Source: Clostridiaceae bacterium (GTDB lineage: Bacteria > Bacillota > Clostridia > DSM-8532). From it: 49,590 nucleotides of DNA. Positions 4,450 to 31,558 of this stretch are shown piece by piece. The stretch spans positions 1 to 49,590 of the forward strand of contig JAAYGP010000274.1 in the NCBI GenBank assembly GCA_012727625.1, written 5' to 3'. Position 1 is the first letter of the stretch, and each line of letters opens with the position of its first letter. The notes under the pieces are model-generated. The model made no database searches and was not told the origin of the DNA. It worked only from the letters and a program-made list of their open reading frames with translations. The position numbers were made by a program, and so were the translations under genes.

Positions 4450-7400
4450 ATGGGAAAACAAAAAAATAAGAAGATTAAGACAGCTAATAATGATAATATT
4501 TTAAACAAAATAAAAACATTCCTTATTGCAGCATTGGCATTTATAATTTTCTATCCGCCATATCTGCAGGGACTGTTTTTTGAAAAGCATGTACTACCTA
4601 CAGGAATTTTTGTATTTGCAGTATTCATAATTTTTTTAGTATATAAATGGCTTAAAAGGGATTTTTCTTTCTTAAAAACACCAATTGAATATATTGCCCT
4701 GGCATTTGTTGCTGTATATTTCATATCAATATTCAACGCAGTACACACCCGCTCTGCAATAATTGAATGGCTGAAGTACTGCATGTATTTTGCGGTATTT
4801 TATATGATTACTGAGCTTGCAGATGATTTGAAGACAAGGCTTTTGTTTTTATGGATGATAATAGCCTCCGCTGTGGGTGTGTCCATAATTGGCCTTGATT
4901 CAGCCAATGGTAGCAGGCTTGTCGGTGTTCTTAACAGAATTTTCAACATATTCGGGTACAAAGGGGATATGTTCTTTGGCCTTTTTGTAGGAAACAGAAT
5001 AAATTCCACTCTTCAATATCCAAATGCCCTTGCTTCCTATGTAATGGCAGTGTTTTTTATTACCATTGGCATGTTGATTGTTCAGAAAAAATGGTGGCAA
5101 AAGGCTATAACAGGGATTTGCAGCTTTATTCTCTTTACAACCTTTATACTGACACACAGCCGCGGAGCTCAACTATTATTCCCGGTTGCATTATTAATCT
5201 TCTTTTTAGCTGCTCCTAAAGGCAACAGAATTAAAGCCGTTACACATGTTATAATGTTATCAGTACCGACTGTGGTATTTGTTCTAATGATTAATCCACA
5301 TCTTTCTGGTGACAACTTTAATATAAAGGTGTTCGGACTGTTATTGGCAGGCATTGTTTTGTCAGGTTTAATTGGGATTGTTTCAGGATTTATTGCGACA
5401 GCACTGCAAAAAATTAATTGGAAAATATATGCTGGATTGATTACTGTTTCAGCGGCATTGGTTATAGCCGGAGGAATATATTTAATTAACCAATCAGTCC
5501 CTGTTGAGCTGAAGCATGAGATAACTGCGGAAGATACGATTCAATCAGTCTCAAAGGATGTAGCCTTAAAGCCTGGCAAAGAATATATTTTATCCTATGA
5601 AGCTGAGGCATGGATGGAAGAGGTAAAACCATATGCATACTTCATAAGGTTATTTAGTAAAAGCAATAGTAATATTTTATTTGGTGGAAGCCCACAACTT
5701 TTAAGAGAAGAATTACCTGCAACAAATGGTGTTGAAGAGAGAAGCATAAAATTCATTACTCCTGAAGACAGTAAGCTAATTTCAATTTATTTCTCAAATT
5801 ATTATGCCGGAACAGGTGTTAAAGTTAATAATATTAAGATTATTAATCCGGAAACCAATAAAATTTTAAAAGAAATTGCTTTAAAAAATAAATACAATCT
5901 GGATAGTATTATTAACAGGTTTCAAAACATATGGTTTCAAAATAGTCTTTTAACGAGGGCTATTTTTTATAAAGATGGATTTGAGATATTCAAAGATCGC
6001 TGGTTTTTAGGTGGTGGCGGCGGCGCTTGGAACTATTTATATCGCCAATACCAGTCATATAACTATGCGAGCAGCCAGGCACATAATTTCCCACTCCAAT
6101 TAGGGATAGAAACAGGCATCATGGGGCTATTAGTGCTATTATGTCTTATCATTGTAATTGCTCATACGTATATCAAATATTATAAAAAAGAAAAGCAACA
6201 GAATAATCAAGAGGATAGAATTAAAGATGATGATACAAAAATAGCAGAAAGATTCTTAAATTCATCAGTAATTGTAGCTATAGCAGCTTTATTATTACAT
6301 TCAGTTATTGACTTTGATTTTTCTGAAGCATCTATGCTCTTTTTGTTTTGGCAGCTTATTGCTTTATTTGGAAGTAGTATGAGAGAAACGTTAATGACAT
6401 CTGAAATGCCCCCCTTTATATTTAATAATGTTCGAAAAAGCAAGAAAAATGTTATAACAAAGACAGGGGTTGTTGCTGGAATACTGTGTACAGCTATAAC
6501 TCTTGGTTTTTCTTTTAGTTTTTTTATTGCAACATCTTTCGCACAGAATGCTTACGGACATTTAAAGAATAATAATATTCAAAAGGCGATAGACAGTATT
6601 TATAAAGCTATTAGTTTTGATGGATTCAATGAGAAATATATTACAGGCTATAACCCGGTACCTGCAAGACCGGATATAAAGACAGGCTTGGCAGAACTGT
6701 TGTTTATTAAAAATGATTCACTAAAAAGCTTAGAGCAAAATGGTGAAAAGACGCCTGAAAGTGAAGTGCTTATACTCCAGCAGCAGTTTACTGATGTGAA
6801 TAAACGTATAAATGAGCTTGAAAAAAACGCAGCGAACAATTTAAACTTGGCAAGTAACATAGCAAGCTTTTACTTTAAAACAGGGCAAACAGAAAAGGGG
6901 TTAGAATATCTCAATACTGCTATAGATCAATTTCCTTTTGAACCATCTCTATGGCATTCAAAGGTTGATGTATACTTTCAACTGATGAGTACTAATTTTA
7001 ATAAAGGTGACTATGATCGTGCAAAAGAATATATCGATTCCGGATTGAATATAATTAGTGAAGTTATAGAAGTAAACAAAAGAAATATGAATCCCTTTGT
7101 TTTCAAGGAAGAAACGATCACCTTATTACAGAAACTACAATTTATGCATGATTATTGGGATAAAGATGAACTTAAAGATATTAATAAAATTGTACATTAT
7201 AGCATTCTTAACTTAGATGTAAATATGGACGGTATGCCAGATCAATGGGGAATTAATGAAACAGCATTTATTAATGTTTCAATAATTGATAATAGTATGG
7301 GAATAAAAGCGTCAGGAAGAAACTTCATCTATAGCCAACCTGATGTTAAATTTGAAAAAGGTAAGACATATCAAATTGATGTAAAGTTTAAAAGTCCTGT

Positions 7401-7581
7401 AGAGAATATAGCATATTATGTAGTTGGAATAACACCAAATACACTACCTTTAATTCAGGTTGATGGAAAGTATTCAGCAGACCTGATGATTGAGAATGAG
7501 CCAAATGAAAATGGTAATCAGTTCAGATTATATCTCGAATCAGACTGTGTTATTGAAAGAATAAATATAAAGGAGAAATAA
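4450..7581 (+). CDS. Large polytopic Wzy_C (O-antigen ligase / O-oligosaccharyltransferase-like) protein with inserted and C-terminal beta-sandwich domains and a TPR-like region
   Basis: More than 10 predicted TM helices. Wzy_C-type loop SQAHNFPLQLGIETGIMGLLVLL. CBM-like segments at ~aa 350-480 and ~aa 920-1043. Helical repeat region at ~aa 700-900. Confidence 0.75.
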   Translation: MGKQKNKKIKTANNDNILNKIKTFLIAALAFIIFYPPYLQGLFFEKHVLPTGIFVFAVFIIFLVYKWLKRDFSFLKTPIEYIALAFVAVYFISIFNAVHTRSAIIEWLKYCMYFAVFYMITELADDLKTRLLFLWMIIASAVGVSIIGLDSANGSRLVGVLNRIFNIFGYKGDMFFGLFVGNRINSTLQYPNALASYVMAVFFITIGMLIVQKKWWQKAITGICSFILFTTFILTHSRGAQLLFPVALLIFFLAAPKGNRIKAVTHVIMLSVPTVVFVLMINPHLSGDNFNIKVFGLLLAGIVLSGLIGIVSGFIATALQKINWKIYAGLITVSAALVIAGGIYLINQSVPVELKHEITAEDTIQSVSKDVALKPGKEYILSYEAEAWMEEVKPYAYFIRLFSKSNSNILFGGSPQLLREELPATNGVEERSIKFITPEDSKLISIYFSNYYAGTGVKVNNIKIINPETNKILKEIALKNKYNLDSIINRFQNIWFQNSLLTRAIFYKDGFEIFKDRWFLGGGGGAWNYLYRQYQSYNYASSQAHNFPLQLGIETGIMGLLVLLCLIIVIAHTYIKYYKKEKQQNNQEDRIKDDDTKIAERFLNSSVIVAIAALLLHSVIDFDFSEASMLFLFWQLIALFGSSMRETLMTSEMPPFIFNNVRKSKKNVITKTGVVAGILCTAITLGFSFSFFIATSFAQNAYGHLKNNNIQKAIDSIYKAISFDGFNEKYITGYNPVPARPDIKTGLAELLFIKNDSLKSLEQNGEKTPESEVLILQQQFTDVNKRINELEKNAANNLNLASNIASFYFKTGQTEKGLEYLNTAIDQFPFEPSLWHSKVDVYFQLMSTNFNKGDYDRAKEYIDSGLNIISEVIEVNKRNMNPFVFKEETITLLQKLQFMHDYWDKDELKDINKIVHYSILNLDVNMDGMPDQWGINETAFINVSIIDNSMGIKASGRNFIYSQPDVKFEKGKTYQIDVKFKSPVENIAYYVVGITPNTLPLIQVDGKYSADLMIENEPNENGNQFRLYLESDCVIERINIKEK

Positions 7582-7858: not shown

Positions 7859-8692
7859 ATGCCTTTGAAATTAATGTATATCACAAACTCTCCGATGGTC
7901 GCTACCATTGCTGAGCAAAGTGGTGTTGATAGAATTTGGATAGATCTTGAACATATGGGAAAAGAAGAACGTCAACGTGGAATGAATAGCGTAAAGTCAA
8001 ACCACAAACTCGCAGACGTAGCTATGCTGCGTCCTTATGTGAAAAACTCAGAGTTGATGGTTAGAGTCAATCCGCTACATGAAAATTCAAGAGTTGAAAT
8101 AGATGAAGTAATTACCAGCGGAGCAGATTTGGTTATGTTACCAATGTTTAGAACCGTTGATGATGCTTTTCGTTTTGTAGATATTGTTGGTGGTAGAGCT
8201 AAGGTTATGCTCTTGGTGGAAACTGCAGAAGCCATTGAGAATTTGGATGAGATTGTGAAGGTTTCCGGAATTGATGAAATCCATATCGGCTTGAATGATT
8301 TACATTTGGCGTATGGTTTGAATTTTATGTTTGAACTTGTAGCTGATGGAACAATAGATAAAGCCTGCGAAATTATACGTTCAGCCGATATTCCTTTTGG
8401 CTTCGGTGGTGTTGCTAAATTGGGTGAGGGGCTTCTTCCTGCTGAATATGTTCTTGCAGAGCATTATCGTCTTGGTTCTTCTATGGTTATTCTTTCACGT
8501 ACGTTCTGTAATACTTGGTTGAGCAAAGAAGAAGTGGAACTGAAAAATGTATTCTCAACTGGAGTAAAGAAATTAAGAGATTATGAGACTATGCTAGTAC
8601 AACAAGATGATTTATATTTCATTAAAATGCATAAAAAAGTTCAGGAAATAGTTTATTCCATAAGCAAAGAAATAAAAAATAAGAGAGGATAA
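7859..8692 (+). CDS. HpcH/HpaI-family (class II, pyruvate-dependent) aldolase-like enzyme
   Basis: SGVDRIWIDLEH, LVMLPMF and VMLLVETAEAIENLDEI..IHIGLNDL match the HpcH/citrate-lyase-beta TIM-barrel pattern. AAGGAG lies 8 nt upstream of the ATG at 7859; the track start at 7853 is a TTG. Confidence 0.7.
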   Translation: MPLKLMYITNSPMVATIAEQSGVDRIWIDLEHMGKEERQRGMNSVKSNHKLADVAMLRPYVKNSELMVRVNPLHENSRVEIDEVITSGADLVMLPMFRTVDDAFRFVDIVGGRAKVMLLVETAEAIENLDEIVKVSGIDEIHIGLNDLHLAYGLNFMFELVADGTIDKACEIIRSADIPFGFGGVAKLGEGLLPAEYVLAEHYRLGSSMVILSRTFCNTWLSKEEVELKNVFSTGVKKLRDYETMLVQQDDLYFIKMHKKVQEIVYSISKEIKNKRG

Positions 8693-8696
8693 AGAA

Positions 8697-9920
8697 ATGA
8701 AACTTAGTTCAGATATTATTGCCGAATTGAGTAAGCAATATGGTGATGCATTCTATTTATTACATTCTAAGCGATTTGAACAAAATTTTATTGAACTAAA
8801 AAAAGCATTTACAGATATTTACCCGAAGTTTAATATAGCGTATTCTTATAAAACAAATTACATACCTGAACTTTGTAAAATCATAAATCGCCTTGGAGGA
8901 TATGCAGAGGTTGTTTCCGGCATGGAGTATGAAATTGCCTTGCGTATTGGTGTTTTACCAGAAAAAATTATCTGGAACGGCCCATATAAAAATGCCGAAA
9001 AGGTTCAGGAACTGCTTCTGGCTGGTGGTATTGTCAATATCGACTCTGCTTATGAGATTGAGATGATTAAGGGGATTGCTGAACAAAACCCTGAAAAGAC
9101 TCTAAAAGTCGGGATTCGATGTAATTTTGATATTAATGATGGAGTCACATCACGATTTGGTTTTGATATTGAATCAAAGGATTTTCAACGAGTGTATGAG
9201 TTTTTAAGTACTACCTCTAATATTCATTTTACTGGTATGCAGTGTCACTTCGCAACTCGTGTACTCGAGACCTGGTACTCTCGTGTCAGAGGAATGTTAA
9301 AACTATTGGATAAACTAGGTATAGTACCTGAACACATTGACCTTGGCGGAGGTATGTATGGAAAGATGGCAGATTCTCTGAAGGAGCAGTTCGGTTGTTA
9401 TATTCCGACTTATACTGATTATGCTAAAGCTGCAGCATCGTTATTTGCAGACCGCTACGGAGAGTTATCATATAACCAGCAACCTCTTCTGTTAATAGAA
9501 CCTGGCAGTGCGCTCGTAGGAGATTGTATGTCATTTATTTCAAAAGTTGTTAATATAAAGGAAGTGCGTGGAAAGGCCATTGCAACATTGCTTGGTAGCA
9601 TTTATAATATCAATCCCACACTGAATACGAAGAATCCTCCAATATCTGTATTTCATATGGGTGGTGAGATAAAAGAATATACAAATCTTGATTTTGGAGG
9701 TTTCACCTGTATTGAGTCAGATTATCTTTACCGCCACTATACCGGTTCTCTTGCACAGAACGATATGGTAATGTTTGATAACGTTGGATCTTATTCAATA
9801 GTGCTTAAACCACCATTTATTTTACCTAATTTCCCCGTATTAGATATTGATGGTGATGAAGTAAAAGTGATAAAGAGGACAGAAACTTTCGATGATTTGT
9901 TCAATACATATAAGTTTTAG
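8697..9920 (+). CDS. Fold-type III PLP-dependent decarboxylase (Orn/DAP/Arg decarboxylase family)
   Basis: AYSYKTN (PLP lysine), HIDLGGG, EPGSALVG and GFTCIESD motifs appear in the canonical order. Confidence 0.8.
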   Translation: MKLSSDIIAELSKQYGDAFYLLHSKRFEQNFIELKKAFTDIYPKFNIAYSYKTNYIPELCKIINRLGGYAEVVSGMEYEIALRIGVLPEKIIWNGPYKNAEKVQELLLAGGIVNIDSAYEIEMIKGIAEQNPEKTLKVGIRCNFDINDGVTSRFGFDIESKDFQRVYEFLSTTSNIHFTGMQCHFATRVLETWYSRVRGMLKLLDKLGIVPEHIDLGGGMYGKMADSLKEQFGCYIPTYTDYAKAAASLFADRYGELSYNQQPLLLIEPGSALVGDCMSFISKVVNIKEVRGKAIATLLGSIYNINPTLNTKNPPISVFHMGGEIKEYTNLDFGGFTCIESDYLYRHYTGSLAQNDMVMFDNVGSYSIVLKPPFILPNFPVLDIDGDEVKVIKRTETFDDLFNTYKF

Positions 9921-10001
9921 TAATTTATGAGGTGCAGGAAACATATCAATCTATGAAGATTATGCGGAGATGACATTGTAAGATTAATGGAGGTTTGTGA
10001 A

Positions 10002-10847
10002 ATGAGAATTGCAGAAAATGATATGCAATTAAAATTAAACACAATGCAAATACCATTAGATTCAAGGACAGATTCTGCACTGGATCCTATTTATATTGAA
10101 TACAAAAAAAACCGTACCATATTTATGATGTTCACGTTAACTTTAAAGCGTATTATTGATTTATTAGGTTCAGCGGTAGGTTTAATTATACTATCCCCGC
10201 TGTTCTTAGTAGTATCTATTGCCATAAAACTCGACTCGCCTGGCTCTGTTTTCTTCAAGCAGAGAAGGCTCGGCTTGTATGGTAAGGAATATAATATGTT
10301 TAAGTTTCGTACGATGTGCCAGAATGCGGAGAAAATGGAAACAGGACTTTATAGCTTTGCTGGTGATCCAAGAATCACTAGAGTGGGTAACCTATTGAGA
10401 AAATCAAGTATTGACGAACTGGCACAGTTAATCAATGTATTTATTGGAAATATGTCGCTGGTAGGGCCACGACCTCCGGTAATAAATGAACTTGGTGATT
10501 TTACTTCAATGAATAGGCGGTATAAAAAGCGCTTTAGGGTTAAGCCAGGTATGACCGGTTTGGCACAAGTGGTGGGACGTAATAAGATTACTTGGGATAA
10601 TAAGGTTAATTACGACAATCAATATATAGAAAAGTTACAAAAGCAGAGTATATGGATTGATATAGTAATCCTATTTAAAACAGTAGGTTGTTTGTTTAAG
10701 CATAAGGATATAATAGAAAACAAAATCGACGAAACACTGGATGATGTAAAGGCTGCAGAAGAGGCGGAAAAAGAGATTATAAGAATTGCCCATATGATGG
10801 AAGAAGAAGACCTTGCTTATGTTAAACAGACTAAAAAAAATGAGTAA
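10002..10847 (+). CDS. Polyprenyl-phosphate sugar-phosphate transferase (PglC/WbaP C-terminal type priming enzyme)
   Basis: KRIIDLLGSAVGLIILSPLFLVVSIAIKLDSPGSVFFKQRRLG..FKFRTM..DELAQLINVFIGNMSLVGPRPP. GGAGG lies 7 nt upstream of the ATG at 10002. Confidence 0.85.
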   Translation: MRIAENDMQLKLNTMQIPLDSRTDSALDPIYIEYKKNRTIFMMFTLTLKRIIDLLGSAVGLIILSPLFLVVSIAIKLDSPGSVFFKQRRLGLYGKEYNMFKFRTMCQNAEKMETGLYSFAGDPRITRVGNLLRKSSIDELAQLINVFIGNMSLVGPRPPVINELGDFTSMNRRYKKRFRVKPGMTGLAQVVGRNKITWDNKVNYDNQYIEKLQKQSIWIDIVILFKTVGCLFKHKDIIENKIDETLDDVKAAEEAEKEIIRIAHMMEEEDLAYVKQTKKNE

Positions 10848-10895
10848 TTGATAAGCAAGTAAATTATTATTATAAAAAAGGGAAGGTATTAAGTT

Positions 10896-11831
10896 ATGGC
10901 AAAATACAGTGTTGAAGATAGATTAATTTGGCTGAACGGTGAAATTGTTCATGTTAAAGATGCAAAGATTAACGTACTTTCTCCAACATCACAGTTTGGC
11001 TTGAATGTATTCGAAGGGATCCCATGTTATTGGAATGAGGAACAGCAGAAACTCTATGCATTTCGTCTTGATGCTCACTATAAGCGTTTACAACAGTCAG
11101 CAAAACTATTAGAGATAGAATGTCCATACAGTCCTGAAGAAATGAAGCGTGCATTGATAGAAGTTGTAAACGCAAATGAATATCATGAAGACATATCGGT
11201 ACGTCAGACGTTATTTGTAGACGGCTTTGGCTCCTGGAGTTCGAAGAATCCTGTTGGCATGTTTATAGCACCTATTCCCAGAAAGAGAACTTCTGCAGAA
11301 TACAATAAGGAAGGCTTGAATTGTTGTATAAGCTCCTGGCAAAGGATTGATGATATCAGCCTTTCACCTCGTATCAAGTGCGGTGCGAACTACATTAACA
11401 GTCGCATGGCTCAGTTGGAGGCATTGAGAAATGGATATGACACAACAATAATATTAAACAGCCGTGGTAAGGTTTCTGAAGGGCCTGGTTCTTGCCTGTT
11501 CATAGTTAGAGATGGGAAACTGGCCACACCACTAATCACAGATAGTGTGCTTGAGAGCATTACCAGAGATACAGTGATAAAAATAGCACATAAAATGGGG
11601 ATTGTTGTTAAAGAGAGAACAATAGACAGAACCGAGCTTTATATGTGCGACGAGATATTTCTTTGCGGTTCTGCAATGGAGATTAAGCCTGTCTTAAGCG
11701 TGGACAAGCATATTGTGGGTTCTGGTGAATGCGGAGAGATTACCAATAGATTTCGCAATGTGTATCTCAAAATTGTCAGAGGTCAGAGCAGCTTCAATAA
11801 TAGTTGGCTTGATATTATAGTTGAGGGTTAA
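10896..11831 (+). CDS. Class IV (branched-chain / D-amino-acid type) aminotransferase
   Basis: The VFEGIPCY...FRLDAHYKRLQQSAKLLEI and SEGPGSCLFIV patterns are typical of IlvE/Dat fold-type IV enzymes. Confidence 0.85.
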   Translation: MAKYSVEDRLIWLNGEIVHVKDAKINVLSPTSQFGLNVFEGIPCYWNEEQQKLYAFRLDAHYKRLQQSAKLLEIECPYSPEEMKRALIEVVNANEYHEDISVRQTLFVDGFGSWSSKNPVGMFIAPIPRKRTSAEYNKEGLNCCISSWQRIDDISLSPRIKCGANYINSRMAQLEALRNGYDTTIILNSRGKVSEGPGSCLFIVRDGKLATPLITDSVLESITRDTVIKIAHKMGIVVKERTIDRTELYMCDEIFLCGSAMEIKPVLSVDKHIVGSGECGEITNRFRNVYLKIVRGQSSFNNSWLDIIVEG

Positions 11832-17357: not shown

Positions 17358-18338
17358 ATGGATCCGTTATTTGTAGTATTCACAAAGCATTCAGATTATG
17401 CATGGGTTCATACAGAGGAACTGCAGAATTATACAAATGTTATTTTTGATAAAAAGATTAATAATAAATTATTAGCTATGGCAAACAGACTTCACACAGC
17501 AATACGAACCAATAAATATTTCAGAATTCCGCTACAAAAAATATGGTTTAAATGCTATCTCGACAATGAAAAAATTAAAAATTATAAAGAGATTTATTTT
17601 TTGTTTATTGAGGGGAATAGATTGGGTTACAGTCCGGAGTATTTAAAATATATAAAAAAGGAATATCCAAATGCTAAGTTAGTTTTTGATTTTACTAATC
17701 CTACCAAAAAAATCGATAGTAAATACATTGAGCTAATTAAGAAATATTATGACTTGATACTGTCATTTGATTTATCAGATTGTAAAGAATTCGGCTGGAC
17801 TTATTATAGTGGTGTTTACAGCAAAAGAAATGATCTGGATTTGTCAGATGTGCCTGATTCAGATGTTTTTTTTGTTGGCAGTGATAAAGGTAGAATTGAT
17901 ATTATTCATGAGATATATGATTTGCTGACAGACCATGGTTTAAAATGTGATTTTCATGTGGTTGATGTTCATAAATCCAAAATCAGAAAGAATTCATGTA
18001 TTCAATATAACAAACGGTTATCATATGAAGAGGTCATAAAAAGAGTCTGTAAAACAAAATGTATATTGGAAGTAACTCAATCAAACCAAACTGGCAGTTC
18101 ATTACGTGTCATGGAAGCAATCGCATATGGTAAAAAATTACTTACAAGTAATAAGGCACTTGAACAAGAGAGATTTTATAATAAAAATCAAATGTATATT
18201 TTTGATAAGCCTTCCGATATAAATATAGAGTTTTTAATCAATAATGAAGAACAATTTGAATATGATGGCTGTTTATCACCATACAAAAGACTTGAATTCA
18301 TACAGAATTATTTTAGAAAACGTGAGGGTGAGAGTTAA
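17358..18338 (+). CDS. Uncharacterised glycan-locus protein, possibly a GT-B-like transferase
   Basis: Clear ORF with AAGGAG RBS. Only weak cues to function: FFVGSDKGR and SSLRVMEAIAYGKKLLTSN resemble the C-terminal half of GT-B enzymes. Confidence 0.4.
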   Translation: MDPLFVVFTKHSDYAWVHTEELQNYTNVIFDKKINNKLLAMANRLHTAIRTNKYFRIPLQKIWFKCYLDNEKIKNYKEIYFLFIEGNRLGYSPEYLKYIKKEYPNAKLVFDFTNPTKKIDSKYIELIKKYYDLILSFDLSDCKEFGWTYYSGVYSKRNDLDLSDVPDSDVFFVGSDKGRIDIIHEIYDLLTDHGLKCDFHVVDVHKSKIRKNSCIQYNKRLSYEEVIKRVCKTKCILEVTQSNQTGSSLRVMEAIAYGKKLLTSNKALEQERFYNKNQMYIFDKPSDINIEFLINNEEQFEYDGCLSPYKRLEFIQNYFRKREGES

Positions 18339-18356: not shown

Positions 18357-19241
18357 ATGAAAGGAATTATTCTAGCTGGAGGAGCCGGAACCCGGCTATA
18401 TCCATTAACTATGGTTACCTGTAAACAGTTATTGCCAATTTATGACAAACCAATGATTTATTATCCATTGTCTACTCTCATGCTCGCTGGAATCAAGGAT
18501 ATTCTTATTATATCTACTCCAACAGACTTACCGAATTTTGAGAGGCTTCTTAGAGACGGTTCGGACTTTGGTATAAACTTATCATATAAGATCCAGCCAA
18601 ATCCTGACGGATTGGCACAGGCATTTATTCTTGGTGAGGAATTCATCGATGATGATACCGTTGCCATGTGTTTGGGGGATAACATTTTCTATGGTGGCAG
18701 TTTAACTGAAAGATTAATAATTGCTGTTAATAATGCAGAAAAAGGTTATGCCACAGTCTTCGGTTACTACGTCAAAGATCCTGAACGATTTGGCATTATG
18801 GAAATTGATGATTCAGGCAATGTTATAAGCGTTGAAGAAAAGCCAAAGCAGCCGAAATCAAACTATTGCATTACCGGCCTCTACTTCTATCCAAAGGGCG
18901 TGAGTAAAAGAGCAAAAATTGTAAAACCCAGTGCAAGGGGGGAGCTAGAGATTACATCACTCAATGAAATGTACCTTAAGGATGGGATACTTAAAGCACA
19001 GATCCTGGGACGCGGCTTTACATGGATCGATGCAGGAACAATGGACAGTTTAACAGATGCCTCCGTATTTGTTCAGATGATTCAAAACCGGCAGGGAGTA
19101 GTCATCTCAGCACCGGAAGAGATTGCATACATACGTGGCTGGATATCGAAAGATAAATTGCTTGAATCCGTTGATCGTTATGGAAAATCGCCATATGGAC
19201 AACACTTAAGGAATGTTGCTACAGGAAAATTCATATACTGA
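18357..19241 (+). CDS. rfbA: Glucose-1-phosphate thymidylyltransferase
   Basis: [18 protein letters not shown]...[17 protein letters not shown]; 294 aa. Confidence 0.95.
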
Positions 19242-19252
19242 GGAGGTGTAAG

Positions 19253-20272
19253 ATGACTGTTATAGTTACCGGTGGTGCCGGATTCATTGGTTCCAACTTT
19301 ATATTCTATATGCTTAAGAGATATCCTGATTATAGGATAATATGTCTTGATAAACTTACTTATGCGGGAAATTTTTCTACTCTGGCTTCGGTAATGGACA
19401 ACCCACGGTTCAGATTCGTAAGGGCAGATATTTGTGACCGTAAGGCTGTATATAATCTTTTTGAGGAAGAACATCCAGACATCGTAGTAAATTTTGCAGC
19501 TGAGAGCCATGTGGATAGAAGTATCGAGAATCCATGCCTGTTTCTCAAAACAAATATTATAGGTACTGCCACAATAATGGATGCTTGCAGGGAATATGGT
19601 ATAATCAGATATCATCAGGTATCAACTGACGAGGTTTATGGTGATCTTCCCCTTGACCGTCCTGATTTGTTATTTACTGAAGAGACGCCAATTCGTACAA
19701 GCTCTCCATACTCAAGTTCCAAGGCAGCAGCCGACCTTTTGGTTCTTGCCTATCACAGAACTTATGGTTTGCCTGTAACCATCAGCCGCTGTTCAAACAA
19801 CTATGGGCCGTATCACTTTCCGGAGAAGTTAATCCCGTTGATGATTATAAATGCTCTGAGTGACAAACCATTACCTGTTTATGGAGAAGGTATAAATGTC
19901 CGTGATTGGCTTTATGTAGAAGATCACTGTAAGGCTATAGATTTAATCATACACAAGGGCAGAGCCGGTGAAGTCTATAACATTGGAGGCCGCAATGAGA
20001 TGCGGAACATAGATGTTGTAAAGATGATTTGTGATGCTCTTGGAAAACCATATACTCTGATTAGATTTGTAACCGATCGTAAAGGTCATGATTTGAGATA
20101 CGCAATTGATGCTACAAAGATTCATAATGAGTTGGGCTGGTTTCCTGAGACAAAATTCGCTGACGGAATTAAAAAGACAGTTCAATGGTATTTGGATAAC
20201 CGTGAGTGGTGGGAAACTATTATCAGCGGAGAGTACCAAAATTACTATGAAAAAATGTACGGGAACATATAA
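19253..20272 (+). CDS. rfbB: dTDP-glucose 4,6-dehydratase
   Basis: VTGGAGFIGSNF, HQVSTDEVYG, YSSSKAA (YxxxK); 339 aa. Confidence 0.95.
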   Translation: MTVIVTGGAGFIGSNFIFYMLKRYPDYRIICLDKLTYAGNFSTLASVMDNPRFRFVRADICDRKAVYNLFEEEHPDIVVNFAAESHVDRSIENPCLFLKTNIIGTATIMDACREYGIIRYHQVSTDEVYGDLPLDRPDLLFTEETPIRTSSPYSSSKAAADLLVLAYHRTYGLPVTISRCSNNYGPYHFPEKLIPLMIINALSDKPLPVYGEGINVRDWLYVEDHCKAIDLIIHKGRAGEVYNIGGRNEMRNIDVVKMICDALGKPYTLIRFVTDRKGHDLRYAIDATKIHNELGWFPETKFADGIKKTVQWYLDNREWWETIISGEYQNYYEKMYGNI

Positions 20273-20329
20273 TATAACGATTTGTTATGTAAAAAATAAA
20301 AATTTAAAGACAGGAAGGAGATCAAAATA

Positions 20330-21460
20330 ATGGCCATACAAGTTTTAAAGCCAAAGTTCCATATAGATGAGTGTCTTGATGCAGTGAAAGTGTGTCTGGA
20401 AATGGGTTGGACAGGAATGGGATTCAAGACAGTAGAGTTTGAAGAAGAATGGAAGAAATATACAGGCCATCCTAACGCCCATTTCATTAATTCCAATACC
20501 GCAGGTCTGCACCTTGCAGTAAAAATTTTAAAAATGGCGAATGGCTGGAGTGATGGCGATGAAATCATTTCGTCCCCTATAACCTTTGTTTCAACAAACC
20601 ATGCCATCTTTTATGAAAATATGCATGTTACATTTGCCGATGTTGACGAATACCTCTGTATTGACCCTGATGATGTTGAAAAAAAAATCAACGGTAAAAC
20701 TCGTGCGGTAATTTTTGTCGGATACGGTGGACGTGTCGGCAGGCTTGACAAAATAATTGAAATCTGCAGAAAGAATAATCTTAAACTTATTCTTGATGCA
20801 GCCCACATGTCCGGCACCCGTGTAAATGGAGTTTGTCCAGGTACATGGGATGGAGTTGATGTTGCCGTATATTCATTTCAGGCAGTAAAGAACCTTCCTA
20901 CCGGCGATAGTGGCATGATCTGCTTCAAAGAAGAGCGTTTTGATAAATTGGCACGTCAAATTGCCTGGCTTGGTATTAACAAAGATACATACGCCCGCTC
21001 AAACAAAGGCACATATTCTTGGAAATATGATGTTGATTATATTGGATATAAGTATAATGGTAACGCCATTATGGCAGCGATTGCCCTAGTTCAGTTAAAG
21101 TATCTGGATGAAGAGAATGCAAGAAGACGTCAGATTGTTGAAAGGTACAATAGGGGTTTTAAAGATAATAAAAATATACAAATAATTCCTGCGAATTATG
21201 CTGATGAATGTTCTTTTCATCTGTATGAACTGGTTGTTCCTGACAGGGAAGCATTGTTGGATTACCTGTCACAGAGAGGAATCAACTGCGGTGTGCACTA
21301 TCGTGATAATACGGAGTATAGTATGTATCACTATGCCAAGGGTACTTGCCCGCATGCTCATGTAATAAGTCAGCACCTCATTAGTATGCCACTTCATATG
21401 TGGCTGACCGATGATGAAGTGTATAGTATTATTGATGCTGTAAATGGGTTTTTAAAATGA
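20330..21460 (+). CDS. DegT/DnrJ/EryC1-family PLP sugar aminotransferase (NDP-4-keto-6-deoxyhexose transaminase)
   Basis: SSPITFVSTNHA, LDAAHM and YSFQAVKNL (PLP lysine); 376 aa, located between rfbB and rfbC. Confidence 0.9.
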   Translation: MAIQVLKPKFHIDECLDAVKVCLEMGWTGMGFKTVEFEEEWKKYTGHPNAHFINSNTAGLHLAVKILKMANGWSDGDEIISSPITFVSTNHAIFYENMHVTFADVDEYLCIDPDDVEKKINGKTRAVIFVGYGGRVGRLDKIIEICRKNNLKLILDAAHMSGTRVNGVCPGTWDGVDVAVYSFQAVKNLPTGDSGMICFKEERFDKLARQIAWLGINKDTYARSNKGTYSWKYDVDYIGYKYNGNAIMAAIALVQLKYLDEENARRRQIVERYNRGFKDNKNIQIIPANYADECSFHLYELVVPDREALLDYLSQRGINCGVHYRDNTEYSMYHYAKGTCPHAHVISQHLISMPLHMWLTDDEVYSIIDAVNGFLK

Positions 21461-21981
21461 GTAAAGTAGTTTTAAGAAAAATCAATGAGTTAGATACAGC
21501 AAACATTGTACGGTGGAGAAATTCAGAATCAGTAAAGATGAATCTTTTTACTCAATCTGAACTAAGTGCAGAGCAACATTTGGATTGGCTGAAGAATAAG
21601 GTTGAATCCGGACTCTGTGATCAATATATTATTGTTATTTCGGAAGATAACACATGCACTGATGTTGGCACCGTGATCATCAAGAATATTGATAGGAAAA
21701 ATAAAAAAGGCGAATTTGGCATTTTTATCGGTGAAGAGTCTTATAGGGGAAAAGGCTATGCCCAAGAAGCAACTAAACAGATTCTTGAAATAGGATTTTC
21801 AGAGTTAAATTTAAACCGTATATATCTCTATGTAATGTCTGATAACATAGCTGGAATAAAGGCATACAAAAAAGCCGGGTTTGAAATAGAAGGAATTCTT
21901 AAGGAAGATTATCTTCGGGGAGATAAGTTTATAGATATAGTAGTAATGGGTATAACAAAGGGAAAATGGAAACTGAGATAA
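21457..21981 (+). CDS. GNAT N-acetyltransferase (PseH/WecD/RimL-like), probable amino-sugar N-acetylase
   Basis: IVRWRN...EQHLDWL and RGKGYAQEATKQILEIGF..LNLNRIYLYV...N..A...Y.K.GF; ATGA overlap with the aminotransferase. Confidence 0.85.
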   Translation: MSKVVLRKINELDTANIVRWRNSESVKMNLFTQSELSAEQHLDWLKNKVESGLCDQYIIVISEDNTCTDVGTVIIKNIDRKNKKGEFGIFIGEESYRGKGYAQEATKQILEIGFSELNLNRIYLYVMSDNIAGIKAYKKAGFEIEGILKEDYLRGDKFIDIVVMGITKGKWKLR

Positions 21982-22017
21982 TAGCCAATACTATTATTAT
22001 ATGAGGAGTTGACGATA

Positions 22018-22596
22018 ATGTCTCAAATAGAAGTAATAAAGAATCCTAATGGCATAGAAGGTTTAGCAGTTATAAAACCGACAGTGCATAGAGATTCACG
22101 TGGTTATTTTGTAGAAACATATAATCAAAAAGAAATGGAAGAGGCTGGCCTTTTCCTGACATTTGTTCAGGATAACCAGAGTAAATCTTATAAGGGTGTT
22201 CTTCGAGGTTTGCATTTTCAGAAAAATTATCCGCAAGGCAAGCTGGTGCGTGTAATTCAGGGAGCTGTTTATGATGTAGCAGTTGATTTACGCAAAAACA
22301 GTCCCACCTATGGCTCTTATTATGGTATTATTCTTACAGATACCAATTTTCTTCAGTTTTTCATACCAAAGGGCTTTGCACATGGATTTTTAGTTCTCTC
22401 CGATGAGGCTGTGTTTGCATATAAATGCACAGATTATTACCACCCAAACGATGAAGGTGGACTTGCATGGGATGATCCTGATATTGGAATTAAATGGCCG
22501 TTGGATGGAATAGAAAAAGTAAAGCTGAGTGAGAAAGATAAGGCTAATCCGATCCTTAAAAAGATCGAAACGAGTGGCTTTAAGTTTATGTTTTGA
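22018..22596 (+). CDS. rfbC: dTDP-4-dehydrorhamnose 3,5-epimerase (RmlC cupin)
   Basis: HRDSRGYFVETY..FVQDNQS.S.KGVLRGLHFQ...QGKLVRV..G.V.DV.VD.R; GAGGAG RBS upstream of the ATG at 22018. Confidence 0.9.
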   Translation: MSQIEVIKNPNGIEGLAVIKPTVHRDSRGYFVETYNQKEMEEAGLFLTFVQDNQSKSYKGVLRGLHFQKNYPQGKLVRVIQGAVYDVAVDLRKNSPTYGSYYGIILTDTNFLQFFIPKGFAHGFLVLSDEAVFAYKCTDYYHPNDEGGLAWDDPDIGIKWPLDGIEKVKLSEKDKANPILKKIETSGFKFMF

Positions 22597-25125: not shown

Positions 25126-25248
25126 ATGTGAAACAATCCAAGAACTTATTTACATCCAAAGCGAATAGATATGCATAAAAAACTAAACAATACATATAAG
25201 ATAAGTTTAAATTATAGTTTATACCGAAGGAAAGTTGGGGGAATCAAA

Positions 25249-27900
25249 ATGATAATAAAAAACGGCATCAAACCTGTTACATGTATAATCCTCTGCGCAG
25301 GCAGAGGAACGAGGATGCAATCCAAAGACACCCACAAAGTGTGTTTCCCTATTGGCGGAAAACCGGCTATATTGCATTCCATGGAAAGATATAAGGCTGC
25401 TGGGTTAACCAGGTTTACCGTGGTTGTCGGGACCATGGCAGAACAGGTGATGTCCGTAATCTCCTCAACGTATGACGGTATAAACTACGCTTTCCAGAAA
25501 GAAGCTCTTGGCACAGGCAATGCGGCAAGGATCGGTTTTGAATCCATCGAAGCCTATGATCCTCAGGGAGCAATAATGGTTACCATGGGGGATAAAATAA
25601 TTGAACACCGGGTGATTGAACGCCTTATGTCGGAATTCTATGAAAATGATTTGGATTTGGCTTTTGTCGCAGGGCCCAGGGAGTTTAACCCGGCAGGCGG
25701 ACATGTGGTTATTGATGATGGGAAAGTATGCGGTATTGTGGAAAGCCTGGATATTGAAAAGGCCAAATTATATAATCGCATTTTAAACCAGCTTCAAACC
25801 GGTGCTTATCGTGACATTGATCCGCGGGAAAACATAAAGGAAATTTCAAAAAACATTATATCCTCCGAAAGAAAACGGGAAAAAATAATTAAGCAGCTAG
25901 AAAATATAATGGAGCAAATATGTAACGGCGAAACAGAAAAAGCCATTTTATTGCTTAAGGAAAACGCAGCCATTAAGCTTGGTGGTAGGACTTATGAACC
26001 TGGGTTTCTGGAAAAGGCTCAATATGTAAACTCTGCCATATATATTTTTAAAACCGATGCATTCAAATTTGGTCTTTCAAAAATGACAACCCAAAATGCA
26101 GACAGAGAAGAATATTTAACAGAAGCTATCAACAGCATCTGCAGTTCAAGGGAATATAAAACGTCTGTCATTGTTGTTAAGGAACAAGAAAGCATATTAA
26201 CATATAACAATGTGGTTGAATTACTGCAGGTTGAAGAAATCCTGACAGGCTCAAAAGATCAGTTGAGCTTAAAAAAGAGTGAATATAAGCCGGTTGATGA
26301 ATGGATTGCCCTGTTTAAGGAAATGCCCGATTCTTTGCATAATATCTTAACTGATATATATGGCGACAATCCCGAAAGAATTGAAGAGAGAAGAGCTGAG
26401 TATATAAAGGTTCTGGAGCACTTTCGCAAAAGGTACGGAGCAAATAAAAAAGTGGTAATAACCAGAGCTCCGGGGCGGATTAATTTAATGGGTCGCCATG
26501 TGGAACACAGGGGAGGGAATGTCAATGTTATCTCAATTGACAAAGAGGTAATATGTGTTGCATCGCCTAACCCGGCGCAAGTAAACGTAACAAATGTAAG
26601 CTCCGATTATGAAGAAGGAAAGTTTTCAATTGAAGAATACTTTAAAAATGTCAATTGGGATAACTGGCTTGGTTATTTGGAATCAAGTGAAATATCCAAA
26701 AAGATCCTGGAAAAGCAGGGCGACTGGCTGAACTATGTAAAAGCTCCGATCATAAGGCTTCAGTATCTTTACAAGGACAGAAAGCTTACAGGAATGGATA
26801 TGGCGTTTAACGGCAATATTCCTGTTGCAGCCGGGCTTTCAAGCTCATCAGCCATTGTTGTTGCAACTGCCGAAGCTGCCGTGGCGTTAAATAACCTGGA
26901 TGTTAAACCGCAAAAGTTTGTGGATTTATGCGGGGAAGGCGAATGGTTCGTTGGTTCGAGAGGAGGAGCAGGGGATCATGCCGCAATAAAATTCGGTCAA
27001 AGAGGCTATATAGCAACATTGGGTTTCTTCCCTTTCAGATATAAAGGATCCTTTGAGTTTCCAAAGGGTTACAAACTGTTAATAGCAAATTCATTTGTCA
27101 AAGCCAACAAGACAACAAACGCCAGGGATTTGTTTAATCAGCGTGTTGCGTCTTATGAATTTGGGTTTATGATGTTTAAAGACAAATTTCCGGAATATAA
27201 AGATAAGGTTCGTCATATCAGAGACATTAACCCTGAAAACCTGGGCGTCACCCCCAGCAAAATATATTCAATGCTTCTTGAAATTCCGGAAAAGATTCCA
27301 TCCGATAAAATATCAAGCATTATTTCCCCGGAATATGCCAATGATATAAAAAGGATTATGAAAACCCACAAAGTGCCGAAAGAGTATGAGATTCGTTCCG
27401 TATTAATGTATGGAATAGCAGAATGCAGGAGATCCTTTATATTCGGAAAGCTTATGGAAAAGGGAGACTTAGAGGGTGTTGGCCGCATGATGAAAATTAG
27501 TCATGACGGGGACAGAGTGGCCAGACTGGATGAAAATAATAAAATGCAAAAATATGAATACGATTTGTCAGACGATGTTTTAAAAAGCCTGATTGATGAC
27601 TTAAAAAGCGAAGACGTAAGTCGGGTATATTCCGCACAAATTGAAAACCAGCCCGGAGGATATGCCTGCTCCACACCTGAGATTGACTTCATTGTTGACA
27701 CAGTAAACAGGATTGATGGTGTTTTAGGCGCGCAATTGTCAGGCGCTGGCCTTGGTGGATGTGTCATGATATTAGCCAAAGACGAAGCTGTTGAAAAAAT
27801 AGTATCAACACTTAAGAAATGCTACTATGAACCGGGAGATTTTGATGATGGAATAACAATATCAATCCCGGTAAAAGGCTCAGGACTTATCGGGATATAA
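25249..27900 (+). CDS. Bifunctional sugar-1-phosphate nucleotidyltransferase (N-terminal) / GHMP sugar kinase (C-terminal) fusion
   Basis: N-terminal ILCAGRGTRM...ALGTGNAA (NTP_transferase). C-terminal RAPGRINLMGRHVEHRGG (GalK-like motif I), PVAAGLSSSSAIVVA (GHMP motif II) and SGAGLGGCVM (motif III). GGGGGA RBS upstream of the ATG at 25249. Confidence 0.8.
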   Translation: MIIKNGIKPVTCIILCAGRGTRMQSKDTHKVCFPIGGKPAILHSMERYKAAGLTRFTVVVGTMAEQVMSVISSTYDGINYAFQKEALGTGNAARIGFESIEAYDPQGAIMVTMGDKIIEHRVIERLMSEFYENDLDLAFVAGPREFNPAGGHVVIDDGKVCGIVESLDIEKAKLYNRILNQLQTGAYRDIDPRENIKEISKNIISSERKREKIIKQLENIMEQICNGETEKAILLLKENAAIKLGGRTYEPGFLEKAQYVNSAIYIFKTDAFKFGLSKMTTQNADREEYLTEAINSICSSREYKTSVIVVKEQESILTYNNVVELLQVEEILTGSKDQLSLKKSEYKPVDEWIALFKEMPDSLHNILTDIYGDNPERIEERRAEYIKVLEHFRKRYGANKKVVITRAPGRINLMGRHVEHRGGNVNVISIDKEVICVASPNPAQVNVTNVSSDYEEGKFSIEEYFKNVNWDNWLGYLESSEISKKILEKQGDWLNYVKAPIIRLQYLYKDRKLTGMDMAFNGNIPVAAGLSSSSAIVVATAEAAVALNNLDVKPQKFVDLCGEGEWFVGSRGGAGDHAAIKFGQRGYIATLGFFPFRYKGSFEFPKGYKLLIANSFVKANKTTNARDLFNQRVASYEFGFMMFKDKFPEYKDKVRHIRDINPENLGVTPSKIYSMLLEIPEKIPSDKISSIISPEYANDIKRIMKTHKVPKEYEIRSVLMYGIAECRRSFIFGKLMEKGDLEGVGRMMKISHDGDRVARLDENNKMQKYEYDLSDDVLKSLIDDLKSEDVSRVYSAQIENQPGGYACSTPEIDFIVDTVNRIDGVLGAQLSGAGLGGCVMILAKDEAVEKIVSTLKKCYYEPGDFDDGITISIPVKGSGLIGI

Positions 27901-30161: not shown

Positions 30162-31496
30162 TCACCTGTGCAATGTGTATTTTTTATTTTTACCCCGACC
30201 TTTTACATCAACCATTCCCATTTCAATCAGTTTTCGGATGATGAGATAAGAGCGTGTCCTTTTAAGTCCTAAAAGCTCCATAAGTCCATCCTCCGTGAGT
30301 GAATCATGTTTTTCAAGGTAATTAACAACAGCTTCCATTTGCTTTGTCAGCTTGGCAGGGAGATGGGGCTTATCAGCCTTTAATGGCGCAAAATATTCTG
30401 AAGATTCTTCTTTTGCAAACCTGTTCATATTGGGCAAAACAATTTTGAAAGTGTTATCTGTGACAATAATATCCGGCTTTTTTGGACTATCACGGTAAAG
30501 CTCAAAGATTCTACGTATGCCTGTGCCATATGCTTCGATGTGTTTAAGTCGAAAGAATATTGAGGCTAGTTTTTCATTTCTGGGCAATGAAATTCCTGAC
30601 ATAATATCAGTTTTTGTCAATCCTGAGGGGAGACCGCCAAGTGAGATAAACTCCATCATTTCTGAGTTAATATTTATTATTATGCTGCCGCTATAACCAT
30701 AATCCCTGTGTATTATGGCATTCAGCAAAGCTTCGCGAATTGCTTCCGGAGGATAGTCAATGCTGTCAGTTCTGTCGAGGCCATGTATAACTGAGACCGT
30801 ATGATTATTTAGCATTAAATAATCATATACATCCCGAAGCTGTTTAAAAAGCGAACCGGTAAATTCTTTACGATCTGTAAAAACTGTATTTGCAGAATCG
30901 GCAAATACGGCTGCTTTAATAGAATGTAAACATTGATCGGACAGAAGTAATGCGAGATTTTTATATAATTTTTTATATGAGTCATAGAACCCTAAGGAAA
31001 CAAAATTGTCCTCTGAAAAAGAAACCCCTCTATTGAAAAATTCAATTTTTGCAGACTCAAAAGTGAGATTTTGTATAAGACTTCTGGAGCTTTCAAATGA
31101 ACTGTCATCTGAAAGCTTTATGAATTGCCTTATTTGTTCCCATGTAGCAGGAACTGAAGATGCCCCCTGGCGTACAAAAACACCCGATGGTTTCATACCA
31201 TTACTTTTCAGGAAGTAAGGTTTTGAGGTTCCTTCATAAACAATAACATCAATAGTATTATTATCATTAAGTTTATATTGTACAAACATTGTGATATCGG
31301 GCAGGATTGAGTCTCTGATTATATTGGTAATACGTGTATAGGAGTCGTCTATATCAGAAAGCCCTACAACATTGCCGTTATCATCAACTCCAATTCTAAT
31401 CATGCCGCCATTTGTGTTGGCGAATGCAACAACTTCTTTGTTGATGTTGCTGGTTACATTTTCTTTGAATTCTACATGCTCATTTTCATAATTCAT
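30162..31496 (-). CDS. AlbA_2 (Schlafen-like) / HATPase_c_4 / C-terminal wHTH putative transcriptional regulator (COG2865-type)
   Basis: NEHVEFKENV....KEVVAFANTNGGMIRIGVDDNGNVVG is the AlbA_2 signature. The C-terminus SLTEDGLMELLGLKRTRSYLIIRKLIEMGMV is a wHTH. GGAGG lies 8 nt upstream of the ATG at 31496; the track start at 31538 lacks an RBS. Confidence 0.8.
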   Translation of the reverse strand: MNYENEHVEFKENVTSNINKEVVAFANTNGGMIRIGVDDNGNVVGLSDIDDSYTRITNIIRDSILPDITMFVQYKLNDNNTIDVIVYEGTSKPYFLKSNGMKPSGVFVRQGASSVPATWEQIRQFIKLSDDSSFESSRSLIQNLTFESAKIEFFNRGVSFSEDNFVSLGFYDSYKKLYKNLALLLSDQCLHSIKAAVFADSANTVFTDRKEFTGSLFKQLRDVYDYLMLNNHTVSVIHGLDRTDSIDYPPEAIREALLNAIIHRDYGYSGSIIININSEMMEFISLGGLPSGLTKTDIMSGISLPRNEKLASIFFRLKHIEAYGTGIRRIFELYRDSPKKPDIIVTDNTFKIVLPNMNRFAKEESSEYFAPLKADKPHLPAKLTKQMEAVVNYLEKHDSLTEDGLMELLGLKRTRSYLIIRKLIEMGMVDVKGRGKNKKYTLHR

Positions 31497-31558
31497 ACAA
31501 TGAACCTCCGTAATAACAAATAATGCGAATTCAAACATAAATCATTCATTCTTTGTCA

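Follow-up and report, generated by a model that had tools for sequence, protein, structure and literature searches.

A Widespread Glycan-Initiation Gene Cassette with an Aldolase-Like Core in a Clostridiaceae Contig, and a Tentative Route to a C-Branched Amino Sugar

The Cassette and Its Setting

The window, that is, the whole stretch of DNA analyzed (49,590 nucleotides, contig JAAYGP010000274.1 of a Clostridiaceae bacterium), carries at 7859-11831 a cassette of four genes, encoding an HpcH/HpaI-like protein (here called the aldolase-like protein), a decarboxylase, a small monotopic phosphoglycosyl transferase (PGT) that would prime glycan synthesis, and an aminotransferase. By comparative genomics the cassette is a widespread, conserved and uncharacterized glycan-initiation module, and its most probable role is to equip a sugar of the surface glycan with an amine-bearing side chain. 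The genes, with a frequent fifth member of the cassette, are the following (aa, amino acids; PLP, pyridoxal phosphate; BCAT, branched-chain aminotransferase; GT2, glycosyltransferase family 2):

7859-8692, + strand: HpcH/HpaI-like TIM-barrel protein, 277 aa; Pfam HpcH_HpaI, 63.4 bits (cutoff 25); ATG start
8697-9920, + strand: fold-III Orn/DAP/Arg-type PLP decarboxylase, 407 aa; Orn_Arg_deC_N, 83.8 bits, and Orn_DAP_Arg_deC, 25.1 bits
9987-10847, + strand: small monotopic PGT of PglC-like size, 286 aa; Bac_transf, 211 bits
10896-11831, + strand: class-IV (BCAT-like) aminotransferase, 311 aa; Aminotran_4, 160 bits
11834-12595, + strand: GT2 glycosyltransferase (TuaG-like), frequent fifth cassette gene; Glycos_transf_2, 145.6 bits, and TuaG-like, 239 bits

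An earlier note on this DNA had described the first four genes, and its description was borne out: all four reading frames are intact and on the + strand, have the expected Pfam matches and retain their catalytic residues. The aldolase-like frame could alternatively start at a TTG at 7853. The genes are separated by gaps of 4, 66 and 48 nt, with a further 2 nt to the GT2 gene, and no + strand terminator-like site was found inside the cassette by a promoter/terminator scan that performed at chance level. The cassette is embedded in a single long glycan locus (about 3.1-27.9 kb), and the presence of SLH and SipL genes in the window points to a spore-forming Firmicute.

Conserved Gene Order

The comparison covered the best 80 of at least 564 species-representative loci from a genome-collection scan, plus loci fetched by exact protein look-up; context statistics were calculated on the 56 genome loci that have 4 kb or more of flanking sequence on both sides. 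The order aldolase-decarboxylase-PGT-aminotransferase(-GT2) was found in about 24 of the 80 loci across several phyla, including Clostridia, Selenomonadales, Bacteroidales, Fibrobacter and Erysipelotrichia, as well as in every metagenomic place reached from the PGT side, an arrangement far beyond chance. A GT2 orthologue (46-55% identity) lay directly 3' of the aminotransferase gene in about 12 loci, plus L094 and L095, and the cassette with the GT2 gene behind it may be self-contained and horizontally mobile. Cultured bacteria that carry it include Anaerovibrio lipolyticus LB2005, Selenomonas caprae and Blautia schinkii DSM 10518. Three contexts recurred: the full cassette; the trio of aldolase-like, decarboxylase and aminotransferase genes without a PGT; and the aldolase-like gene with a PGT, a family 4 glycosyltransferase (GT4) and a reductase, the last being a D-2-hydroxyacid dehydrogenase or Ldh_2, often beside PglE and PglD. 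A PGT gene was located within 5 kb of the aldolase-like gene in 48 of the 56 loci.

The same picture was obtained from the other members. All 36 aminotransferase homologues in fetched loci (54-72% identity) adjoined an aldolase-like gene, and none had a housekeeping IlvE context. When the PGT was used as the starting point, four of its homologues (51-57% identity) were looked up and all fell inside the cassette, one of them in inverted gene order, and a Polysacc_synt_2-type dehydratase adjoined three of these four cassettes. The window PGT presents the sequence IDELAQL with the catalytic Asp-Glu dyad, the PRP motif within GPRPP, a single domain and an N-terminal hydrophobic segment. Cassette PGTs share a mean mutual identity of 65.7% across phyla and only 39-42% with PGTs of other contexts, with about 39% to those located between PglE and PglD; comparison with the PGTs of proteobacterial AsnB-aldolase loci gave no signal, all being equidistant at about 34%. 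A PGT known only from inside this cassette would be hard to explain if the sugar that it transfers were a common one. Several loci (L017, L021, L029, L033, L076 and others) hold two PGTs of different clades, one paired with PglE/PglD and the other with an aldolase-like gene, which suggests two different priming sugars per locus.

Profile and neighborhood checks thus upheld the proposal that the trio consists of dedicated glycan-locus genes, with synteny across phyla, fusions and a PGT clade of its own. A literature search returned no paper on the aldolase-like family in glycan loci and, in agreement with the earlier note, no characterized glycan pathway that uses the trio.

The Encoded Enzymes

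The product of 7859-8692 is predicted to be a divergent HpcH/HpaI-type (class II pyruvate aldolase-like) enzyme and its gene the core of the module. It passes the gathering score of Pfam PF03328 with a match that spans residues 11-155 only. The HpaI/RhmA equivalog models gave 31-35 bits against cutoffs of 369-441, and the wider set of HpaI, RhmA, GarL and CitE equivalogs 19-35 bits against 369-443, values that do not support orthology with any of them. The nearest solved sequence was YfaU (E 3.6e-5), and the AlphaFold2 model (pLDDT 94) retrieved HpaI/HpcH/YfaU as the top folds in the Protein Data Bank (PDB; 4b5w, 2v5j, 2vws) with Foldseek, at TM-scores of 0.60-0.68. All 24 family members compared have R69, E121 and D147, which correspond to R74/E153/D179 of YfaU and to R70/E149/D175 of HpaI, the pyruvate-binding arginine and the Glu/Asp metal ligands. 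The family additionally presents its own invariant basic loop (GK35xxR38Q...VKS47xH49), many further invariant polar residues at the C-terminal strand ends, a GLNDL motif and a long C-terminal helical extension. It is a large family, with 7740 proteins matched among the scored candidates, forming 2038 clusters at 50% identity (E <= 0.001), and is carried by at least 564 species-representative genomes, among them Clostridia, Selenomonadales, Bacteroidales, Alistipes, Fibrobacter, Spirochaetia, Erysipelotrichia, Bacillus cereus and Paenibacillus.

The decarboxylase retains the PLP lysine in YSYKTNY and the motifs CHFA, GGG, EPG, TCIESD and GSY. The earlier statement that all its catalytic motifs are present is therefore correct with one exception, the arginine of the usual EPGR, which is a serine here and throughout the cassette clade. 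Against the lysA model TIGR01048 the protein scored 137.4 bits, well below the cutoff of 297.9, and against the FslC model 126 bits. In the PDB it matched the N-citrylornithine decarboxylase FslC best (7kh2, 94 bits), with LysA 2p3e scoring about the same and BtrK also among the matches. At the position of RPSIY in A. aeolicus LysA, where RPxxY is the motif that binds the distal carboxylate, the window protein has NPTLN. Judged by these features, the enzyme is not a LysA orthologue.

The aminotransferase, with its PLP lysine in RIKCGANY, was found to score above the IlvE equivalog cutoffs (NF005146, 308.1 against 279; TIGR01122, 282.3 against 245.55). In the PDB it came closest to 6h65 and 6gkr/7nea (256-238 bits); E. 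coli IlvE followed with 197 bits. Of the carboxylate-site residues Arg40, Tyr95 and Arg97 (E. coli IlvE numbering), its clade keeps R97 and appears to have lost Tyr95, and the residue at position 40 varies, being Pro in the window. The IlvE scores speak for an ordinary set of hpaI, lysA and ilvE paralogues, gathered by chance in a polysaccharide locus. That explanation is nevertheless extremely improbable in view of the cross-phylum synteny, the in-frame fusions described below, the separate PGT clade and the lysA and HpaI/RhmA scores far below cutoff; moreover, no ilv, leu or dap genes were found near the cassette.

Alternative Partners, Fusions and a 2-Oxo Acid Hub

The decarboxylase and aminotransferase genes accompanied the aldolase-like gene in 26 of the 56 loci and a reductase gene (D-2-hydroxyacid dehydrogenase or Ldh_2) in 21, but the two sets never occurred together (0/56; Fisher P = 1.6e-8, not corrected for phylogeny). 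This mutual exclusivity suggests that the product of the aldolase-like enzyme is a 2-oxo acid, which is then modified differently from locus to locus. Other combinations were also found, such as aldolase-PGT-aminotransferase without the decarboxylase (L053, L096), an aldolase-AsnB-like-reductase variant (L048, L049, L067) and minimal loci without any tailoring enzyme in B. cereus and Paenibacillus. The reductase partners resemble MDH and ComC, or PGDH and glyoxylate reductase. The aldolase-like proteins of all context types are about equally related (52-60% identity), suggesting one common reaction.

Gene fusions extend this pattern. The aldolase-like domain is joined in frame to the decarboxylase in L007, L010, L011, L016 and L032, to Ldh_2 in P0124 and to a D-2-hydroxyacid dehydrogenase in P0152 and P0191, which supports sequential chemistry on one intermediate. 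It is also fused to a PglE-type DegT aminotransferase (L076, 665 aa), to PGTs (P0126, P0130, P0132, P0175), to a GT4 (P0147) and to PGT-GT4 (P0162). In P0122, P0123 and P0131 it replaces the dehydratase domain behind a PglF-type four-transmembrane plus CoA_binding_3 module, which normally bears a PglF dehydratase or a WbaP transferase domain. The fusions to PGT, GT4 and the PglF-type domain place the enzyme physically at the membrane-bound initiation machinery. A separate observation is P0136 from the representative library, a 427-aa protein in which the aldolase-like domain is joined to a response-regulator receiver domain.

On the simplest reading, the 2-oxo acid has several fates: it stays unchanged, is reduced or amidated, or undergoes transamination, with or without a subsequent decarboxylation. 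The order proposed in the earlier note, aldol addition followed by transamination and decarboxylation, is in keeping with the absence of overlap with reductases, with L053 and L096 and with the fusions. The opposite order can also be written, with the decarboxylase giving an amine from a common amino acid, the class-IV enzyme converting it to an aldehyde and the aldolase adding pyruvate to form a 3-deoxy-2-ulosonic-type acid. Two observations would suit such a scheme: the solved structures closest to the aminotransferase (6h65, 6gkr) are BCAT-like enzymes with (R)-amine activity, and a CTP_transf_3 (KdsB/NeuA-type) cytidylyltransferase gene lies near the trio in L036 and L058, where the gene order is aminotransferase-aldolase-decarboxylase-GT2, then a 459-aa protein and the cytidylyltransferase. 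However, CTP_transf_3 is rare in these loci, the strict exclusivity with reductases implies alternative fates of one intermediate rather than alternative sources, and loci with an aminotransferase but no decarboxylase exist, so that the reversed order is considered very improbable. A related proposal, that the aldolase-like protein replaces a nonulosonic acid synthase, was dropped because the Firmicute loci lack NeuC and the CMP-transferase and the Proteobacteria already have NeuB.

Proposed Pathway and the Nature of the Acceptor

Two genes of the window are candidates for supplying a 4-keto-6-deoxy sugar:

32527-34515, + strand: PglF/CapD-type membrane UDP-GlcNAc 4,6-dehydratase; Polysacc_synt_2, 422.6 bits, and CoA_binding_3
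19253-20272, + strand: RmlB dTDP-glucose 4,6-dehydratase; TIGR01181, 497.7 bits (cutoff 365)

The first, which is PseB/FnlA-like and has four transmembrane-like segments, could provide the 4-keto-6-deoxy-HexNAc, with RmlB as an alternative 4-keto-6-deoxy source. In the pathway that is tentatively favored, the HpcH/HpaI-like enzyme, judging from its homology and conserved residues, would bind pyruvate on a divalent metal, and attack of the C3 enolate on a carbonyl acceptor would form a 4-hydroxy-2-oxo acid. The acceptor would be a nucleotide- or lipid-linked 4-keto-6-deoxy sugar, for example the PglF product UDP-2-acetamido-2,6-dideoxy-hexos-4-ulose, in which addition at C4 would yield a 4-C-(2-oxo-2-carboxyethyl) sugar. 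From its context, the BCAT-like aminotransferase would convert the 2-oxo group to an alpha-amino acid, and the fold-III decarboxylase would then remove the carboxylate to leave a primary amine. The end product would be a 4-C-(2-aminoethyl)-branched 6-deoxy-HexNAc, which the cassette PGT would move to undecaprenyl phosphate and the GT2 enzyme extend. Alpha-ketoisocaproate is a natural substrate of BCAT enzymes, and the likeness of R2C(OH)-CH2-CO-COO- to it would explain why a BCAT-like enzyme was recruited. The module and the 2-oxo acid hub are shown by comparative genomics, and we infer the identity of the acceptor and the structure of the product.

A small free aldehyde had earlier been put forward as the acceptor. 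A sugar-linked acceptor is indicated instead by the fusions to PGT, GT4, PGT-GT4, DegT and the PglF-type domain and by the many cassette loci in which a PglF-type dehydratase gene immediately precedes that of the aldolase-like protein. The same acceptor is favored because the only conserved partners of the cassette are the PGT, the GT2 and, often, a PglF-type dehydratase. Among the nearest solved relatives of the decarboxylase, FslC and BtrK act on amino acids tethered to larger scaffolds, which was also counted in its favor.

A structural precedent is found in shewanellose, 2-acetamido-2,6-dideoxy-4-C-(3'-carboxamide-2',2'-dihydroxypropyl)-D-galactose, which Shewanella putrefaciens A6 makes together with a derivative of 8-epilegionaminic acid (PMC4052302). 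It is a 4-C-(pyruvamide-3-yl)-branched 6-deoxy-GalNAc, and its carbon skeleton is exactly that of a pyruvate adduct of a 4-keto-6-deoxy-HexNAc. Proteobacterial homologues of the aldolase-like protein (43% identity to the window protein) occur in DegT-AsnB-aldolase-NeuB arrangements, accompanied by genes for NeuC, CMP-NulO synthetase, PGTs and the formation of acetamidino groups. Their gene content is what a glycan of shewanellose and a legionaminic-type acid would need, with AsnB making the carboxamide, a match that is circumstantial. The pair of shewanellose and the 8-epilegionaminic acid derivative is reportedly also present in Morganella morganii. Among the marine Rhodobacterales, such arrangements were observed in L089 (NZ_CP049039.1), L090 (NZ_CP106737.1) and L091-L093, two of them on plasmids; these loci further hold NeuC, CMP-NulO synthetase and an amidotransferase/HisH/HisF set, a gene content that fits a glycan of shewanellose and acetamidino-legionaminic acid. 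An AsnB-type amidotransferase is absent from the window, where the aminotransferase and the decarboxylase stand in its place. The predicted product would thus be the decarboxylated amino analogue of shewanellose, its branch being 2-aminoethyl and not a hydrated 2-oxo-carboxamide.

Several points weigh against the addition of pyruvate to a 4-keto-6-deoxy sugar, and we place its probability somewhat short of even. Of the 26 loci with decarboxylase and aminotransferase, only 8 have a PglF-like gene within 10 kb, and the one in the window is 20 kb from the cassette. The link to shewanellose is circumstantial, as it rests on the gene content of strains other than the producers, and no biosynthetic genes for this sugar were found to be reported in the searchable literature. 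We know of no HpcH-family, BCAT-like or fold-III decarboxylase enzyme that acts on nucleotide sugars, and the IlvE equivalog scores of the aminotransferase also count on this side. Finally, pyruvate kinase, SbnG and CitE-like lyases follow closely after the aldolases in the fold comparison, and HpaI His45 is not conserved in the family; the window protein has DLEH, and the position varies among H, W, R, N, Y and T. Such moderate TM-scores (about 0.6-0.68), the closeness of pyruvate kinase and the loss of a conserved His45 would leave room for non-aldol chemistry.

One alternative within such chemistry is that the family is another enzyme of the phosphoenolpyruvate (PEP)/pyruvate superfamily that converts PEP to X-CH2-CO-COO-, for example a non-canonical PEP mutase producing phosphonopyruvate, which transamination and decarboxylation would turn into 2-aminoethylphosphonate and reduction, in the reductase loci, into phosphonolactate; sulfopyruvate leading to taurine or sulfolactate is a parallel case. 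In the fold comparison pyruvate kinase is about as near as the aldolases, and one family member has a weak PEP_mutase match. Readings as a PEP utilizer or a phosphotransferase were considered alongside the PEP mutase, and in a Pfam search at E up to 5 only weak PK and PEP_mutase matches came up. The GLNDL motif and the many invariant basic residues would suit the binding of phosphate. The early branch points after PEP mutase are a PGDH-like or ComC-like reductase or an aminotransferase, and the alternative partners of the aldolase-like gene mirror them. LicD and cytidylyltransferase genes are furthermore found downstream in several cassette loci. Nevertheless, the constellation of metal ligands and arginine is that of HpcH/HpaI and not of ICL/PEPM, the window has neither LicD nor a phosphonate cytidylyltransferase, LicD comes with IspD and a short-chain dehydrogenase/reductase (ribitol-phosphate type) where it is present, and the proteobacterial pairing with AsnB would go unexplained. 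This possibility was therefore judged improbable.

Another alternative keeps the aldol chemistry of the earlier note on free metabolites, with pyruvate and formaldehyde, acetaldehyde, glycolaldehyde or glyoxylate giving a 4-hydroxy-2-oxo acid, then a gamma-hydroxy amino acid and finally an amino alcohol or amino acid placed on the glycan, for example as an amide of GalNAcA. The nearest folds are indeed small-substrate pyruvate aldolases, the reductase partners are akin to MDH, ComC, PGDH and glyoxylate reductase, whose substrates are small C3-C4 oxo acids, and TviB/TviC-like enzymes for UDP-GalNAcA are encoded in the window. In ten loci (e.g., Limiplasma L003, L018) neither a PGT nor any glycan gene is found within 10 kb of the trio, and in two of these the trio adjoins alanine dehydrogenase, a possible supply of pyruvate or amino donor; such stand-alone trios fit a free-metabolite pathway and likewise count against a sugar-linked acceptor. 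On the other side, no ATP-grasp, AsnB-type or other ligase co-occurred with the decarboxylase and aminotransferase cassette in 36 loci, no conserved ligase or other transferase for a free amine was found in the cassette loci, and a UDP-sugar 6-dehydrogenase (Ugd) homologue was present in only 3 of the 36. Such a route would explain neither why the cassette has a PGT clade of its own nor why the aldolase-like domain is fused to PGT, GT4, DegT and the PglF-type N-domain. The free-metabolite route is consequently regarded as rather unlikely, although it deserves more weight than the other alternatives. The decoration of UDP-GalNAcA with an amide, which the earlier note had considered, is not supported by the Ugd and ligase counts; uronic-acid amides were rejected as a general mechanism, and the proposed attachment point was probably wrong.

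In the stand-alone trios of L007 (13097-14212) and L008, where the aldolase-like and decarboxylase genes are fused, alanine dehydrogenase lies directly 3' of the aminotransferase gene, with a GH127 arabinofuranosidase upstream. Its position next to the trio hints that alanine is the amino donor and pyruvate the nucleophile.

Relation to Known Systems

The PglF-PglE-PglD-PglC set of Campylobacter and the EpsC-EpsN-EpsM-EpsL set of Bacillus likewise open a glycan locus with a cluster of a 4,6-dehydratase, tailoring enzymes and a small monotopic PGT. Their tailoring enzymes are a DegT aminotransferase and a hexapeptide acetyltransferase, whereas those of the cassette are the HpcH-like aldolase, the class-IV aminotransferase and the fold-III decarboxylase; in many loci the cassette takes the place of PglE/PglD between dehydratase and PGT. 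The aldolase-like protein is a TIM-barrel protein of the same Pfam family as HpaI/HpcH, YfaU (RhmA) and GarL and has their metal site of Arg plus Glu/Asp. It differs from them in its low identity (about 16-22%; TM-score 0.60-0.68), the unconserved His45, its basic loop and the C-terminal helical extension, as well as in context, which is glycan assembly and not the catabolism of aromatic compounds or sugar acids.

An HpcH-family protein and a fold-III decarboxylase are also paired in the citrate siderophore pathways (SbnG/SbnH, AcsB/AcsE, FslC), in which SbnG is a citrate synthase and the substrate of the decarboxylase is an amino acid joined to a larger acid. Unlike these, the cassette has no IucA/IucC synthetase, lies in a locus of PGT and glycosyltransferase genes and includes a class-IV aminotransferase. 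Engineered cascades of YfaU/HpaI and BCAT enzymes give gamma-hydroxy amino acids from free small aldehydes. The reaction logic of these synthetic cascades is the same as that proposed in the earlier note, and to our knowledge no natural glycan pathway of the aldolase-transaminase type has been described. An analogy with CDP-2-glycerol and Gtp3 was considered and dropped, as the pneumococcal paper mentions no such family.

Other Features of the Window

The 5' part of the glycan locus runs Wzz, a 1043-aa Wzy_C-TPR protein, the cassette, GT2, GT4, acetyltransferase and Wzy, and the 3' part comprises a flippase-like protein with 10 transmembrane segments, WaaS/CpsH, RmlA, RmlB, DegT, GNAT, RmlC, TviB-like, TviC-like and Fkp-like proteins. 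One of these genes had been left unassigned earlier and can now be named:

17358-18338: WaaS/CpsH-family glycosyltransferase; NCBIfam NF053598, 146 bits (cutoff 60)

The 1043-aa protein just upstream of the cassette (4450-7581) has about 12 transmembrane segments, a Wzy_C (O-antigen ligase-like) domain, TPR and a weak CBM_4_9 match, and this combination of ligase/polymerase, TPR and carbohydrate-binding module is unusual. The genes at 18357-22596 encode RmlA-RmlB-DegT (PseC-like)-GNAT-RmlC, the GNAT protein scoring 92.1 bits against the PseH model (cutoff 93.1); RmlD was not found anywhere in the window, and the dTDP-sugar is probably a 4-acetamido-4,6-dideoxyhexose and not rhamnose. At 25171-27900, a nucleotidyltransferase and a GHMP/galactokinase-type kinase are fused in one 909-aa protein, whose architecture is like that of the Bacteroides sugar-salvage enzyme Fkp. 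The PglF-like dehydratase at 32527-34515 is separated from the main locus by a stretch of low GC content (0.35) that holds a soluble 633-aa reading frame (28129-30030) and a minus-strand Schlafen/AlbA_2 plus HATPase_c_4 gene (30162-31538). This stretch may be an insertion that split the locus.

Biological Significance

Taken at the level of the family, the HpcH-like proteins, present in at least 564 species, may carry out C-C branching of nucleotide-activated 4-keto-6-deoxy sugars with pyruvate, and interchangeable tailoring enzymes would then produce a series of C-branched sugars, in the window a 4-C-(2-aminoethyl) amino sugar that starts the glycan; this remains a provisional view, in which our confidence is less than even. 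If it is true, it would supply a biosynthetic logic for shewanellose-type branched sugars, and aldolase-type C-branching would be a new class of reaction in nucleotide-sugar chemistry. Even with a small aldehyde as the acceptor, the cassette is an uncharacterized five-gene module with a dedicated priming transferase. A sugar-linked acceptor would further predict that very common bacteria of the gut and rumen make a family of sugars not yet known, and gut Firmicutes and Bacteroidota would gain a positively charged, potentially zwitterionic surface polysaccharide of a new kind. Free amines on the first sugar make Bacteroides polysaccharides of the PSA (polysaccharide A) type zwitterionic and immunomodulatory. 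The cassette would then represent a second, unrelated and widespread route to amine-bearing glycans, which would be relevant to studies of host-microbe interactions.

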